From Nitrospirales bacterium (lineage in GTDB: Bacteria; Nitrospirota; Nitrospiria; Nitrospirales; UBA8639), in the NCBI GenBank assembly GCA_963555755.3, contig OY820905.2, forward strand, positions 2,016,001 to 2,080,000: DNA of 64,000 bases, read 5' to 3'. The notes below the pieces were generated by a model. That model was given only the letters and a program-made list of their open reading frames with translations, did not search any database and was not told where the DNA came from. The translations under genes and the position numbers were made by a program. Below are positions 16,415 to 27,477 of this stretch, one piece after another; within the stretch, counting starts at the first letter, position 1, and each line of letters starts with the position of its first letter.

Positions 16415-16849
16415 TCACTCGAATGGATTTTGGACATCCAGGAAGTCAAATTTTCTAAAGTCCCTATCGGTTGTATACAGCTTCCTCACATCGTGTTGCC
16501 GCAATAGGCTGACTAGATGCGCATCGGGCACCAAATTGCCCCGGACAGGAAAATTACCGGTGACCTCTCCATAGACATCCAGGAATCCGTCGGCCTCGGA
16601 CAAGGGTCGAACATGCGGAACTTGGAGGAGAGTCCGAATATTGGTTAACGCTTCCTGCGCAGATAAGGGATGGGTGAAGATTTTAGGATGAGTGGAAATA
16701 CGAAGGTAAGCCATCAGGGTTGGCCATGCCACATACCACATTTCAGTATGAATAGAACAGGTACGAAGAAATTCTATGGCGGATTCATGAAAAGGACTGG
16801 TGCGATCAGAGGCGTAGAGGAGGACATTGGCGTCAACGGCATAACTCAC
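16415..16849 (-). CDS. vapC: VapC PIN-domain toxin
   Basis: VDANVLLYA, GNLVPDAHL and TDRDF motifs. Confidence 0.9.
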   Translation of the reverse strand: MSYAVDANVLLYASDRTSPFHESAIEFLRTCSIHTEMWYVAWPTLMAYLRISTHPKIFTHPLSAQEALTNIRTLLQVPHVRPLSEADGFLDVYGEVTGNFPVRGNLVPDAHLVSLLRQHDVRKLYTTDRDFRKFDFLDVQNPFE

Positions 16850-17085
16850 TTTTTGCCCTGGTCGAGGACTGAGTAAACTGTCTCTTTGTCAGTTAGGTCA
16901 ATTGTCGCGTTCATGGCACGAGTGACCCATTGGAGTTTGGCCGGCTTGTGGGCTTTAGTTCTCCGGGATAAGGCTTCAGCCAACAATTGGGACATGATTT
17001 GCCCCAACGAGCGTTTCTCCTTTTTTTGGAGAGACTTGAGTTCCTTTAAAATTGGGGCATCGATATCAACGGTGGTTCTAGCCAT
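16846..17085 (-). CDS. vapB: VapB antitoxin (RHH)
   Basis: MARTTVDID RHH start; 4-nt overlap with vapC; TTGACA-N17-TATCAT promoter at 17095-17123. Confidence 0.85.
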   Translation of the reverse strand: MARTTVDIDAPILKELKSLQKKEKRSLGQIMSQLLAEALSRRTKAHKPAKLQWVTRAMNATIDLTDKETVYSVLDQGKK

Positions 17086-17309
17086 GATGCAATGATGATA
17101 GGTCTGGGAACATCTGATGTCAAGAAAAAGAGCACCAAAGCACAGACAACGATTTCGTGACACCGAAAAGTACGAGGACCTGCCCTAGAACGACCAGCGC
17201 CCCCGGCAATTAGCAGGGATCCAGGTTATGAAATAGAGCGAGAAACACGCGAGGTTCCCACCCGCACATCCAGAACAATCTCGCCATACCCTACGCCATC
17301 TCAGCTTCT

Positions 17310-17709
17310 TATTGGTGTGCATGGTGAAATATCGATGGTGATGAGACATTTTTGTATTTTGGCTGGTGCGCCAAGAAGCCTGTCCGAGATTAGGGATCGT
17401 CACGAGGATGTGCTGGTTTGAGTCAGATGTTTCGATCGTTTGAGGCGAATATTGGTGACTATTTAACGAAAACGGGGAATGTTCAAAAAGGCCGTCCAGC
17501 AAGGCCGCAGGGCTTTTGGCGCGCGGAGCGTACACGGAGTACGTGAGCACGCCAAAAGCCCGAGAACGCAGCTGGCGGCCTTTTTCAACATTCCCCGAAA
17601 AGGATCGGAAGATCTGGCCATACCCAGCGTACCCGCAGTAGATCCGTCTAATCTTGGACAGGCTCCTACAGCTTGCGCGGACCTTTGTGATCCAACTGCT
17701 GTTTCTAGG
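17310..17709 (-). mobile_element. Nested MITE: D (partial) containing E (17375-17666) containing B (17474-17596)
   Basis: Reverse-complement homology to 21162-22044; D end GTTTCTAGG followed by TTGAA. Confidence 0.8.
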
Positions 17710-17723
17710 TTGAATGTGGCACC

Positions 17724-17978
17724 CTACCGATAGACATCTTTGCGATCCCCAAATTTTAATACCAGAACAATCAACTGCTTGTCTTGGATTTCATAAATAA
17801 CCCGAAGGTTGCCTGCCCGCCAACGATATAAACCTTTGAATTCCCCGCTCAACGCTTTGCCCTTATAGGGATCTTTGGCTAAATTCCGTTGGATGTTGTC
17901 CAGAACTCGTTTTTGGACAGATTTCGAAAGTTTCTGCAGATCTTTTTTTACAGATTTTTTAAATCGGATCTCAAACAC
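17724..17978 (-). CDS. relE: RelE/ParE family toxin
   Basis: KDLQKL...GKALSGEFKGLYRWRAGNLRVIY. Confidence 0.9.
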   Translation of the reverse strand: MFEIRFKKSVKKDLQKLSKSVQKRVLDNIQRNLAKDPYKGKALSGEFKGLYRWRAGNLRVIYEIQDKQLIVLVLKFGDRKDVYR

Positions 17979-18186
17979 CGAGCGCTTTCCTCATTTGCGC
18001 CATCGTCCAGATTTCATCATCCTTATCAGCCCGACGAGCCAGGGCAATTTGATAATCTTCATATTCCTGAAGGTAGAGTTCCAATGCTTTTTTAATAAAA
18101 TAGCTTTTAGGACGTTCCGTCTCTTTCGCCAATCGTCGAAGTTTACGATCTAATTGGTCTTCTACTCTCACAGTTAAGGTTGCCAT
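17971..18186 (-). CDS. relB: RelB-like RHH antitoxin
   Basis: MATLTVRV..LAKETERPKSYFIKKAL; overlaps the toxin. Confidence 0.88.
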   Translation of the reverse strand: MATLTVRVEDQLDRKLRRLAKETERPKSYFIKKALELYLQEYEDYQIALARRADKDDEIWTMAQMRKALGV

Positions 18187-20952: not shown

Positions 20953-21161
20953 ACTGCCTCCTATCCCATATCGAAAGCCAACCCATGAATCGGCAACCAA
21001 CTTCATTGTTCAAGGTTCGATCGGCCCATTACGCCATGAACCAAAGCCTATAGGCCAACACGATCACGAGAATGATCACAGCGTAATCCCAACCATCAAA
21101 AAAGCCAACATCTTTTGAAACGTGCTTTTTTGTGGTCTCTTAATAGTGTTTTAACCTTCAA

Positions 21162-22044
21162 CCTAGAAACAGCAGTTGGATCACAAAAGTCCGCGCAAGC
21201 TCTTAGGGTCCGTCACGAAATAACCGGGACAATTGGCCGAGACGATTTTGGAGCGAGCCAAGGAGCGAAGAGCGCGCATACCGGGAGTATGGAAGCGATG
21301 AGCGACGCCGGCGGAGCCCAAAAGCGTCCGGCCCTCCGGGGAGGCCCATCTTTGGCCCGGGGCAGCGTTGCTCCTCGGTCACAGAGCCCCGCTCTGCTCC
21401 CTCGTCGCGCCTTGCCTCGATCACAAATCTGGGCCTCCCAATTGTCCCGGTTATTTCGTGACGGACCCTGAGCGCACATAGGAGCCTGGCCCAGATTAGA
21501 CAGATCTACTGCGGGTGCGCTGGAGGTGGCCAGATCTTCCGATCCTTTTCGGGGAATGTTGAAAAAGGCCCCCAGCTGCGTTCTCGGGCTTTTGGCGTGC
21601 TCACGTACTCCGTGTACGCTCCGCGCGCCAAAACCCCTGCGGCCTTGCTGGATGGCCTTTTTGAACATTCCCCGTTTTCGTTAAATAGTCACCACTATTC
21701 GCCTCAAACGATCGAAACATCTGGCTCAACCCAGCACCCCCTCGTCACGATCGCTAATCTCGGCCAGGCTCCTCGCAAAATACAAAAATGTCTTATCACC
21801 ACTAAGGGCTCTCGCAGGAATAACATCCCCTGTTTGGGTGCTGAGACACCTGTCTGGCAAGGCGCGAGGACTGCGCATACTCCTCGTATGGAAAGGACGA
21901 GCAACGCTGCCAGACGGGATGGATCGACGCCCAAACAGGGGATGTTATTCTTGCGCGAGCCCTTGGGTGCCCACGACTTTTTGTATTTCACCATGCACCC
22001 CAATGTCTTACACGGCTTTTTTGCGCCCAACTACTGTTTCTAGG
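21162..22044 (+). mobile_element. Nested MITE: D containing F (21206-21468), E (21481-21772, itself containing B 21551-21673) and G (21806-21962)
   Basis: D TIR CCTAGAAAC/GTTTCTAGG with 5-bp TSD TTCAA. F TIR GGGTCCGTCACGAAATAACCGGGACAATTGG. E TIR GGAGCCTGGCC. G TIR GGGCTCTCGCAGGAATAACATCCCCTGTTTGGG. Confidence 0.88.
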
Positions 22045-22060
22045 TTCAATTAAGACATCT

Positions 22061-22201
22061 GGGCACTTCTAAAAACCAGGCATTTTTTGTGAGGGCAAGG
22101 AAGCCGCGCGCGGAAAACCGGAGTGTATGGGCGAATACATGAGGATGTGAGCACGTGGCTGACGCCGCCATCACGGAAAAGGACGGTTTTTAGAGGTGCC
22201 C
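22061..22201. mobile_element. MITE family A copy (reverse)
   Basis: 141 bp, reverse complement of 5529-5669, TSD ATCT. Confidence 0.88.
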
Positions 22202-22332
22202 ATCTTAAAAATCTCTCGCCCCCATGGAATAGGGGAGAGGGCAAGGGTGAGGGGGTCTTAACGAATGGTTAACACACGATAAACCTAGAAACATGGCTAA
22301 GAGTCACTTGTCTTCGTGACGTTTCGTGGCAT

Positions 22333-22367
22333 AAAAAAAGCCGCCTTCCCCGTTGGGAAGGCGGCTT
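22333..22367 (-). terminator. Intrinsic terminator
   Basis: 13-bp stem AAGCCGCCTTCCC/GGGAAGGCGGCTT followed by a U-tract on the minus strand. Confidence 0.85.
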
Positions 22368-22741
22368 GTCTTTGGCGCCTATAACGCCAGGACCATGATT
22401 GCCTTCTCGTGCATCGACCCGCCGATGATTGGACAGTGGGACCTTTTTGCTGAATGAGGAGCCGGGGTCTGTCTCACGCCACAGAGTGGAAGGGAAATTC
22501 TCCTCTGCGGAGTCGCCTGTTCTTTTATTCGCTCAATGAGCACGTGCTAACGGGCACGACCATAGACAGGCAGCATGAACGCCGACTAGAAGCAAAAAGT
22601 CCGCTGTGAGGAGAAGGCAACCCCAATCACAGGCGAGGCCAACTGGTCAGGTGGAGTATTGTCTTGCATAGCGAGACCCTCCTTATTGTGTGCATCGAGG
22701 GACTGGACTTTCCCTCGGGTGAGACCCCGTTATTCGAGGCA
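22333..22741 (-). ncRNA. Candidate structured RNA (~410 nt) containing a 27-codon ORF (22586-22669)
   Basis: Bounded by a promoter and a terminator; no long ORF; multiple long-range complementarities. Confidence 0.55.
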
Positions 22742-22747
22742 AGGAAA

Positions 22748-22776
22748 ATGCTACGCCTGTTGGATAACGGTGTCAA
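22748..22776 (-). promoter_or_regulatory. sigma70-type promoter
   Basis: TTGACA-N17-TAGCAT on the minus strand. Confidence 0.7.
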
Positions 22777-24656: not shown

Positions 24657-26282
24657 GTGAACACAAAAACCAAATGCCAACAGTTTAGGCAACTCCTCCA
24701 ATCACAGGAGTTGGAATTCATTTGTGAAGCCCATAATGGGCTCAGTGCCAAAATTGTGGAGGAAGCTGGGTTCAAGGGGATTTGGGGCAGTGGCTTGACC
24801 ATTTCCGCTCAGTTCGGGGTTCGAGACAATAATGAAGCGAGCTGGACGCAAATTCTGGACAACCTCGAGTTCATGTCTGATGCCACACATATTCCCATCC
24901 TGCTCGACGGCGATACTGGTTATGGCAATTTCAATAACATGCAACGACTCATTCGCAAACTCGAACAGCGCCAGATCGCCGCCGTCTGCATCGAAGACAA
25001 ACTCTTCCCCAAAACGAATAGTTTCTTGAAGGGCGATGCCCAACCCATGGCGGACATCGATGAATTTTCCGGCAAAATCAAAGCCGGCAAAGATGCGCAA
25101 ACCGATGACGATTTTTGCATCATCGCCCGGGTCGAAGCCTTTATTTGCGGGTGGGGGTTGGCCGAGGCCTTACGACGCGCCGACGCGTATCATCAAGCAG
25201 GCGCCGATGGCATTTTAATTCATAGTGCCCTGGCCGTTCCTGATGAAATCCTGTCATTCAAACGCGAATGGGGTGATCGCTGCCCGGTCGTCATCGTTCC
25301 GACGAAATATTATTCCACGCCGACCGACGTCTTTCGGCATTCCGAGTTCGCCATGGTCATTTGGGCCAACCACCTTCTTCGCACGGCTGTCACGACGATG
25401 CAAAAAACCGCCAAGACGTTGAAAGAACAGGAGCACCTGCTGTCCATCGAAGACCGAATCGCACCGGTATCTGAAATCTTTCGTCTTCAAGGTGCGGCAG
25501 AACTTCAAGAGGCGGAAAAACGGTATCTCCCGCAGAACTCCGAAAACATGGCCGCCATTATCCTGGCCGCTTCCCGAGGGGATGAGCTAGGTGAACTCAC
25601 GGAAGACAAACCCAAAACCATGGTGCATATCCAAGGCACGCCTCTCCTGTCCCACATTGTGGATGCCTACAATGCCGTGGGGATCAAAAATATTACGGTC
25701 GTTCGTGGTTACAAAAAAGAAGCCGTGACGCTGCCGAATCTCACCTATGTGGATAATGATAGGTTCGCCGATACAGGAGAATTGGATTCGCTGCTCAAAG
25801 CGCTTCGCGCAAAAAACGGGGCATTTCAAGACACAATTATTTCTTATGGCGATGTCTTGTTCAATCAATACATTCCACAAACGCTTTTCCAGGAACAAGA
25901 AGATCTGGTCATATTCGTGGATAGCTCATGGGAAGGGAAGACCAGTTATACTCGTCTCGGAGGATTCGCGGAATGCACCCTTCCCAATTCACGGAAAACA
26001 TTCCATTCAAAAGTGTATTTACAACAATTAGGCCAAGATGTGCCGGAAGCCTCCATCCACGGCGTCTGGATGGGATTCCTCAAAGTTTCCTCCAAAGCAT
26101 GTGAACAATTACAAGAAATTTTAGAACACATGCTTGCCGATCCTGCCAACCGGAAAGCCGGCATGTCTCAGTTGTTTCAAGAGTTGCTGCGACGGAAATT
26201 TTCCATCCGGGTCCTGTACACTGTTGGCCATTGGCTGGATATTAATAGCCTCGACGATATCGTCCATGCCGGAGAGTTTTAA
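24657..26282 (+). CDS. pepM: Phosphoenolpyruvate mutase fused to a C-terminal nucleotidyl (cytidylyl)transferase
   Basis: Diagnostic [10 protein letters not shown] (EDKx5NS); C-terminal [18 protein letters not shown]-transferase domain. Confidence 0.95.
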
Positions 26283-26352
26283 AGTCTGAAGGGCCCCGTG
26301 AGTTCCATAGGGATTCCCGCAACTGATTCATCCTTCCAAACAGAAATCCATT

Positions 26353-27477
26353 ATGCTTGACCCCGAACAGTTTTTTGCATGCCTTCAGCAGCATGAGGTG
26401 TCGTTTTTCACAGGAGTCCCGGATTCACTGCTGAAAGATTTTTGTGCTTGCGTGACGCAAAAGGCTCCAGAGAACCAACATATTATCAGTGCCAATGAAG
26501 GCGGGGCCGTTGCCTTGGCGGTTGGCTACCATCTCGCCACAGGGAACATTCCTTTGGTCTATTTACAGAATTCCGGGTTGGGGAACATCATTAATCCCCT
26601 TCTCTCACTGGCCGATCCGGACGTGTATGCCATTCCCATACTGTTCGTCATCGGATGGCGAGGTGAACCGGACGTGCATGATGAACCCCAACATAAAAAG
26701 CAAGGGCGGGTCATGCTGTCCATGCTGGACTCGATGGAAATACCCTATTCCATTGTCAACCCGGAGATGGATCAGGCCGAGGCAACCATTAAACAGGCAC
26801 TTCACACCGCTCGTGAGACTCATGGCCCCTATGCCCTGATCATTCGAAAAGGCACCTTTAGTCCGTTTCAGCTCCAGCAACCGCCCGCCCCGTCTTTTGA
26901 ATTAACAAGGGAAGCAGCCATTCACCATATCCTTGATGAGCTCGGAGATGAGGATATCGTTATCTCCACGACCGGCATGCCCTCTCGCGAAGTCTTTGAA
27001 TATCGAGCGCACAAGAATCAAGGGCATCAACGAGATTTCTTAACGGTGGGTGGAATGGGACATGCGTCACACATCGCCTTGGGCATTGCTCTTCAAAAAC
27101 CCGACCGAAAGGTATTGTGTTTGGATGGCGATGGGGCGGTACTCATGCATTTGGGTGCCCTGGCCATCAATGGGTCTCTCAAACCACAGAATTTTACACA
27201 TATCCTCCTCAACAACGGGGCCCACGATTCCGTGGGCGGACAACCGACCGTTGGGTTTCAAGTAGACTTTTTGACCATGGCTCAAGCGGTAGGCTATAAA
27301 ACAACAGCCCAGGTTCAGACCGCTGAAGGGATCAAACACGAACTCGTGAGGATTCGAAAATCTCAAGGACCAAGCTTACTGGAAATTCGTATCAACAAAG
27401 GGGCAAGAAAAGATTTAGGAAGACCAACATTGACTCCGGTTCAGAATAAACAGGGGTTTATGAAATTTCTTTCCTAA
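26353..27477 (+). CDS. aepY: Phosphonopyruvate decarboxylase
   Basis: FFTGVPDS, ANEGGA, QNSGLGN, TTG..SRE, DGDGA..MH and HDSVGGQ motifs. Confidence 0.95.
   Translation: MLDPEQFFACLQQHEVSFFTGVPDSLLKDFCACVTQKAPENQHIISANEGGAVALAVGYHLATGNIPLVYLQNSGLGNIINPLLSLADPDVYAIPILFVIGWRGEPDVHDEPQHKKQGRVMLSMLDSMEIPYSIVNPEMDQAEATIKQALHTARETHGPYALIIRKGTFSPFQLQQPPAPSFELTREAAIHHILDELGDEDIVISTTGMPSREVFEYRAHKNQGHQRDFLTVGGMGHASHIALGIALQKPDRKVLCLDGDGAVLMHLGALAINGSLKPQNFTHILLNNGAHDSVGGQPTVGFQVDFLTMAQAVGYKTTAQVQTAEGIKHELVRIRKSQGPSLLEIRINKGARKDLGRPTLTPVQNKQGFMKFLS

Follow-up and report, generated by a model that had tools for sequence, protein, structure and literature searches.

A conserved structured RNA family carrying a short Pro-Pro reading frame in fixed register with a long-range helix

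Analysis of a 64,000-nucleotide stretch of DNA (the window) identified the gene of a folded RNA of approximately 410 nt, on the minus strand at 22333..22776, with its own promoter and terminator. A promoter-to-terminator unit conserved in relatives, covariation in its helices, cover in RNA runs and the lack of an Rfam match supported the assignment of this RNA to a new family. Its conserved core has a fixed order, SD-AUG-x4-Pro-Pro-(Asp/Gly/Asn), then helix A without indels, a small hairpin and the terminator. Judging from this arrangement, we see an even chance that a ribosome is loaded onto the RNA and kept at the Pro-Pro codons against a clamp of RNA, for parking or sensing rather than for making a peptide. 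A preliminary description of this DNA had placed a promoter, a terminator, a Shine-Dalgarno sequence (SD) and a 27-codon ORF on the minus strand, and all four were found where it put them (Table 1). Its proposal of a new non-coding RNA class held as regards the unit, the covariation, the lack of an Rfam family and the RNA cover, but the element is not purely non-coding, as its codons 1–8 have a coding signature.

Table 1. Features of the RNA gene, in window coordinates
Feature	Coordinates	Strand	Details or basis
Sigma-70-type promoter	22748..22776	−	TTGACA 22776-22771, 17 nt, TAGCAT 22753-22748; 10/12 consensus matches
5' leader, hairpins 22740-22725 and 22717-22696	22696..22740	−	Outside the conserved core
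Strong Shine-Dalgarno sequence UAAGGAGGG	22677..22685	−	Predicted to pair with codons 2–6 in a weak local hairpin
Mini-ORF, 27 aa, MQDNTPPDQLASPVIGVAFSSQRTFCF then stop	22586..22669	−	Conserved part is M-x-D-x-T-P-P-D only
Pro-Pro-Asp, codons 6–8 (CCA CCT GAC), predicted pause site	22646..22654	−	Conservation in relatives
Helix A, 5' strand	22624..22637	−	From ORF nt 33; 15 nt from first base of the Pro7 codon
Helix B, 5' strand	22611..22621	−	Crosses helix A; also complementary to the SD
Folded inner domain	22433..22607	−	Helix C (22607-22590 with 22452-22433) and further stems
Inner-domain hairpins, UGCC..GGCA-type and second	22557-22544; 22541-22531	−	Kept in the inner domain
Helix A, 3' strand (..CGGGU)	22418..22431	−	Closes the ~200-nt folded domain
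Helix B, 3' strand, SD-like GAAGGC	22397..22408	−	Partner of helix B 5' strand
Small GGCG..CGCC hairpin before the terminator	22375..22389	−	Present in both phyla
Intrinsic terminator, 13 pairs (22367-22338) and U run	22333..22367	−	Sequence

Transcription was predicted to start at about 22740, and TAAGGAGG begins at 22685, before the ORF (both on the minus strand). The promoter is kept in relatives, with a sense-strand score of at least 9 of 12 in 65 of 69 representatives, and the distance from the −35 element to the terminator was 400–471 nt in 87 copies and 412–495 nt in 15 distant ones. The unit folded better than its shuffles (z −3.5), none of 100 being as good. The leader is merely about 15 nt long in family f3, so that it is dispensable, and in deltaproteobacterial members an H-type pseudoknot takes its place. 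In L013, L017 and their relatives this 5' pseudoknot is strongly conserved, has an inner GC hairpin, precedes the SD and is aptamer-like in appearance; it has no Rfam match. The preliminary description had also reported that TCGATGCAC occurs twice, which it does (22698 and 22417), but a repeated 9-mer arose in 110 of 500 dinucleotide shuffles and the repeat is not kept in relatives, so that we regard it as a chance occurrence.

Contigs from environmental RNA runs cover the element, and 12 runs on record as RNA contain part of the stretch. In run X2, a difference-free contig over 22439–22729 had a depth of 3268, with depths of 2–6 for difference-free pieces of the flanking genes and 2335 for a difference-free RNase P contig. 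In run X8, the one compared of eleven small-share runs (X8–X18), which came from a different study and a related strain, the depth was 368–565 over the element, about 2 over the flanks and 553 over RNase P. By this crude measure, the element is as deep as RNase P RNA in one metatranscriptome. In runs X4 and X5, both of one sample, the element was thinly covered and the flanking genes not at all. These depths point to an RNA well above its neighbours but do not measure its level, contig depth being a poor and strandless measure of expression and the runs having been selected for holding the element. RNA contigs from two studies stop at 22729, which is 11 nt downstream of the predicted start, and with one of these ends being loose this is at most a weak hint.

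The ORF was compared among 69 representatives, obtained by collapsing at 90% the 87 distinct starts that were found by BLAST, synteny and profile. The pattern that collected these representatives demanded PP or SP, so that the number with PP in this set is by construction. The unbiased test was provided by the members found by synteny, in a search that did not require PP, and here all 21 of 21 had PP at codons 6–7. Codon 8 was Asp, Gly or Asn in 64 of the 69 representatives, compared with 15.8% after PP in the long ORFs of the host genome, and codon 3 was Asp in 55 of 69. The Pro7 codon varied at its third base only (entropy 0, 0 and 1.43 bits), and the third position was free at Thr5 as well. 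Across the RNA family the ORF ranged from 8 to 61 codons with unrelated tails; it had only 8–9 codons in 6 of the 69 representatives, a form that includes both paralogues in the host genome. Because Pro-Pro and codon 8 are conserved, the third base is free and the lengths beyond run from 8 to 61 codons, codons 1–8 appear to be under coding-type constraint and the codons after them do not. Conservation of the ORF, in other words, extended to its first eight codons but not to the rest. Indels occurred between the SD and the AUG and none were present between the AUG, PP and helix A in alignments of 22 and 40 sequences. Rare exceptions to this fixed register were an extra codon before PP in L120 and L225 and the loss of one base in L203.

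The three long-range complements of the preliminary description, of which the first two cross, had duplex energies of −15.1, −17.1 and −16.4 kcal/mol. Compensatory changes supported both crossing helices, strongly for helix A and within the host's family for helix B. Helix A, which joins ORF nt 33–46 to a partner about 200 nt downstream, had changes on both sides in 10 of 12 pairs among 22 members of the host's family, and its own partner gave −18.6 kcal/mol versus −13.0 for swapped partners, a difference reached in 0 of 5000 permutations (22 sequences). Among 68 members from both phyla, the best own partner had a mean of −21.9 versus −18.1 ± 3.8 for the best window in the region of another member, the latter being the fair control as the partners were themselves chosen as best windows. 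For helix B the corresponding values were −10.7 for the own partner versus −8.3 for swapped ones (0 of 5000 permutations; the same 22 members). The alignment of its columns is poor (61% paired in the 22 members), no double change was present in 8 close sequences, and the deltaproteobacterial alignment did not show it as a conserved helix. As judged from these alignments, the crossing helix B appears to be kept across the host's family of the order only. Its 5' strand matches the SD in 91% of cells (22 sequences).

The structure as a whole exceeded 500 of 500 shuffles both in the deltaproteobacterial set, with a double change in 40 of 75 pairs, and in 8 close relatives, with a double change in 21 of 101 pairs; these controls leave the relatedness among the sequences in place. 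A mutual-information analysis of 71 sequences gave noise only, and a distal anti-SD pairing in the deltaproteobacterial members, although 89% paired, was not above shuffles. The alternative pairings proposed earlier for 22463–22477 do exist (−15.4 with 22719–22729 and −13.2 with the SD region) but only within the host's genus.

A profile spanning 72 positions of the start region had matches in 128 of the 151 genomes of the host's order at E ≤ 0.05 (50/66 in family f1, 63/67 in f2, 12/14 in f3 and 2/3 in f4), with 1–3 copies per carrier genome. Inspection of 35 profile-matched places and two in the host genome showed that all except L220 had a promoter or leader, an SD, M-x-D-x-x-P-P and a helix A strand. 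The f2 copies L202, L207, L209, L211 and L218 had no clear 3' end, and the two weak matches inspected in g4 were both real. The two paralogues in the host genome, at C1 3034672–3035177 and C1 3072884–3073328 (both plus strand; ORFs MNDLNPPNQ and MEDLSPPKN, each followed by a stop), have a promoter, an SD, a 9-codon Pro-Pro ORF, both helix A strands and a terminator, and lie beyond BLAST range. In the same phylum outside the order, 0 of 113 genomes matched at E ≤ 0.001. In the other phylum the profile matched 3 of 151 genomes at the same threshold, namely a known carrier, a short relative and a match inside an ordinary gene, and two patterns found no match in viral contigs.

With the host copy as query, BLAST recovered the unit over its full length, promoter through terminator, in 4 of 60 relatives. 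With one deltaproteobacterial copy as query, 34 of the 90 genomes in its family had a match, and five of these had two. An exact-motif scan identified three deltaproteobacterial genomes and 67 metagenome loci, of which 61 were homologues by promoter and SD context, five were chance matches and one (L055) was a doubtful short relative. Synteny identified 27 ROK-gene loci in other genomes of the host's family, 21 with a promoter, SD and AUG upstream and six with none within the flank. Exact-motif scans undercount the RNA family (BLAST, 5/61 relatives; pattern, 5/115 and 2/301 genomes; other class, 2/301), and the reading of a single-copy element conserved at the nucleotide level was an artefact of narrow queries that was overturned by the profile and synteny sets. 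The deltaproteobacterial carriers are, by inference and partly on gene content, Binatia-like.

Shortened and incomplete forms were also observed. The short relatives L223 (G808:C4 near 60997; MTDETPPG..) and L055 (MQDETPPE..) have an SD and share an upstream promoter-like stretch; in L223 a terminator follows about 130 nt on and the large domain is absent. The mini-gene module may thus reach wider than the full RNA. The copy L018 (G404:C521) ends after about 150 nt, where it is fused to the start of a downstream gene without a terminator, and the same genome carries a second, whole copy.

Rfam at gathering score identified nothing in the whole window except one tRNA, and at E ≤ 10 the only matches on the element were over its terminator end. 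The homologues likewise gave 0 matches, in 10 loci at E ≤ 0.05 and at 13 further loci. In agreement with the preliminary description, the RNA is not tmRNA, RNase P or SRP RNA, whose host copies lie elsewhere (C1:3121381, C1:3837413 and C1:2764919, respectively), and it is not 6S RNA, a rod of about 190 nt with a central bubble, as it has no match to RF00013. No 6S RNA was found in the host genome or in five other carriers (L131–L133 are among the loci concerned), and the zapA-rny gap of the host consists of an insertion element and an AT-rich spacer. A replacement of 6S RNA was rejected, as 4 of 4 tested f2 genomes have both a sub-threshold 6S-like rod and the core of this RNA.

Large, folded, lineage-wide RNAs with their own promoter and terminator include OLE, the raiA motif, ROOL and GOLLD. 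Unlike these, the present RNA has a translation start and Pro-Pro that are conserved, and no scanned member matches Rfam. It resembles tmRNA, a structured and abundant RNA that is similar in size and engages the ribosome with an internal short ORF, but it has no tRNA-like domain, has its own SD and AUG, and is accompanied by a normal tmRNA elsewhere in the genome. A full-text literature search found no description of the family; the supplements of motif-discovery papers lay outside its scope and may list it, and the main text of PMC11109978 has no occurrence of 'Nitrospir'.

Based on the order and spacing of the conserved elements, we propose that the strong SD and AUG would load a ribosome, which would stop after seven codons at Pro-Pro-(Asp/Gly/Asn), coinciding with the helix A clamp where the mRNA enters. 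When Pro7 (first base 22651) occupies the P site, helix A would begin at +15 (22637), or at +14 where the preceding G pairs, and one step later the clamp would be at +11/+12, the tunnel mouth. In ribosome complexes (PMC8861025), the last base within the tunnel is +11 and its entrance is at +12, and for this reason helix A would still be intact at the Pro-Pro-X pause and would be at the entrance at the next step. The domain of about 200 nt would rest on the small subunit, and EF-P or a similar factor would govern release. In the host's family there may be a further switch in helix B, the 5' strand of which would pair either with the SD or with the SD-like stretch near the 3' end. Frameshift and pausing signals such as the dnaX stem-loop (PMC8861025) have a similar arrangement, with a stable structure at the mRNA tunnel mouth near slow codons; those signals differ in having a slippery sequence and a second frame, and the slow site here would be Pro-Pro-X. 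A −1 frameshift signal was rejected, as the conserved site contained no X XXY YYZ heptamer in alignments examined by eye and there was no conserved long inner ORF.

The identity of codon 8 is consistent with a pause. In E. coli without EF-P, PPD and PPN fell exclusively among the pausing motifs, and PPG paused while the P site contained peptidyl-tRNA-Pro and the A site Gly-tRNA (PMC4140641). The presence of two putative in-register barriers without indels in two phyla, with no regulated gene and no product past residue 8, led us to propose that holding would be the selected act. Some observations count against this. EF-P is encoded in the host genome and would be expected to relieve an ordinary PPX pause. 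In E. coli a Thr preceding the prolines weakened stalling at PPP (PMC4176338). The SD was predicted to be mostly paired (median unpaired probability 0.22 in 67 members). Finally, the RNA coexists with HPF and 6S RNA in many carriers.

A stronger form of this proposal, which we consider tentative and rather doubtful, is RNA-based storage of ribosomes, in which an RNA at the level of RNase P would recruit the 70S ribosome through its strong start site and lock it at codon 7–8 by a chemical stall and a mechanical clamp, with the domain lying over the entrance. Slow-growing nitrifiers would in this way park ribosomes until EF-P or energy status frees them. The RNA would then possibly share with HPF/RaiA (PF02482) the job of keeping ribosomes unused, but one is a protein and the other an RNA. 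Strong HPF matches accompany the RNA in 10 of 10 cases in family f2, and 19 of 34 deltaproteobacterial carriers have a strong HPF. The idea that the RNA stands in for HPF was not supported. A strong HPF match was missing in 15 of 34 deltaproteobacterial carriers versus 11 of 56 non-carriers (Fisher p 0.017, a value obtained with kin that are not independent and with incomplete genomes). Family f1 has a weak HPF/RaiA match only (45–54 bits), f2 has a strong one (72–83 bits) and a weak one, and the weak match of the host (C1 3061569–3061853) sits between its two paralogues.

Of the other explanations, a translation-gated regulator is possible, if unlikely. Here the ribosome would serve as the sensor alone; pausing at Pro-Pro would keep helix A shut, and read-through would free or destroy an inner domain whose target would be a protein or other RNAs. 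In many members the 5' strand of helix A can pair locally with another partner, anti-SD/SD-mimic pairs occur in both phyla, and the two hairpins listed in Table 1 are kept within the domain. There is also a precedent in MgtL of Salmonella mgtA, in which proline and acidic residues act as the sensor; leaders of this type (PMC12856214) likewise have a short ORF whose early acidic residues and prolines, taken to sense pausing or destabilisation, are followed by alternative RNA structure. Unlike MgtL, this RNA has no fixed downstream gene, has its own terminator and a clamped domain of about 200 nt, and often has a convergent neighbour. Moreover, ORFs of 8–9 codons cannot be translated through the clamp, the sequence of the inner domain is poorly kept (mean column identity 52%), and the alternative pairings have no covariation of their own.

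We find it quite improbable that the element is a structured non-coding RNA that mimics a start site and, with no elongation taking place, binds an RNA-binding protein or the 30S subunit, its codons being kept for pairing or recognition. CCACCU is an imperfect anti-SD, so that part of the codon conservation may reflect RNA pairing. The predicted pairing of the SD with codons 2–6, the use of CCA for Pro6 in 60 of 68 members and the preference for GAC/GAA at codons 2–3 all fit such a mimic. It is countered by the freedom of the third position at Pro7 and Thr5 and by a register tied to the AUG rather than the SD. In addition CCU, a better anti-SD than CCA, never occurred at codon 6 in the representative set.

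It seems to us very unlikely that the product is the short, acidic peptide with Pro-Pro (or the corresponding peptidyl-tRNA) and that the structure just controls its synthesis. The N-terminal eight residues are conserved, ORF forms of 33 aa recur in deltaproteobacterial members and are annotated as genes, and the short relative L223 lacks the large domain. A protein profile search identified 47 proteins at E ≤ 0.001, of which the 39 examined were all of the deltaproteobacterial type and the others were 8 long repeat proteins. Set against a peptide product are the range of ORF lengths with unrelated tails and, in the runs compared, an RNA level far above that of the neighbouring mRNAs.

There is still less to recommend a leader-peptide attenuator of a downstream gene, as downstream genes vary and are often convergent. 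Its usual parts (an SD, a short ORF, alternative helices and a terminator) are all present, and the RNA is upstream of the ROK gene in most of family f1. At 54 loci, however, the downstream gene was on the same strand in 23, on the opposite strand in 17 and not called in 14, with unrelated products. The one candidate antiterminator pairing gave no signal (312 of 5000 permutations as good; 22 sequences), the terminator persisted when the ORF was blocked in silico, and the tandem copies L212 and L213 (genus g17) each have a separate promoter and terminator.

We give hardly any credence to the type I toxin-like mRNA of the preliminary description, silenced by long-range folding, for although PMC5416894 describes aapA1/IsoA1 as a similar stand-alone RNA of a few hundred bases with a sequestered SD and long-range pairing, and the 5' pseudoknot of the deltaproteobacterial members recalls timP of timP/TimR (PMC11228461 and PMC13000454), the peptide is unconserved past residue 8, can end after 8–9 codons and is not hydrophobic (a 15-residue hydropathy of 1.6 was reached by 1 of 56 peptides long enough to score), and no conserved antisense sigma-70 promoter was seen (score of at least 10 of 12 in 0 of 69, with scattered score-9 sites).

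Several neighbouring features of the window were recorded. Short repeats lie between the RNA and the ROK gene (21006–22330), where close relatives have a membrane-protein gene. On the plus strand, 24657–27477 encodes a PEP mutase-NTP transferase fusion and then a TPP enzyme, likely for phosphonate biosynthesis, and on the minus strand 16415–18186 contains type II toxin-antitoxin genes, of the PIN-domain and ParE/RHH kinds, next to a transposase of the IS6 type.

Abundant structured RNAs that span an order are rare, and those known, such as tmRNA, RNase P, SRP and 6S RNA, have central jobs. The carriers of the present RNA are most genomes of its order, including the main nitrite oxidisers (taxon inferred), with 1–3 copies each. 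Its design is unusually readable, as start site, pause motif and helix follow one another at fixed spacing, and it bears on whether idle ribosomes are held or sensed by RNAs in bacteria. If the storage proposal is true, a ribosome-storage RNA would be a new class of ribosome-binding RNA beside tmRNA and SRP RNA.
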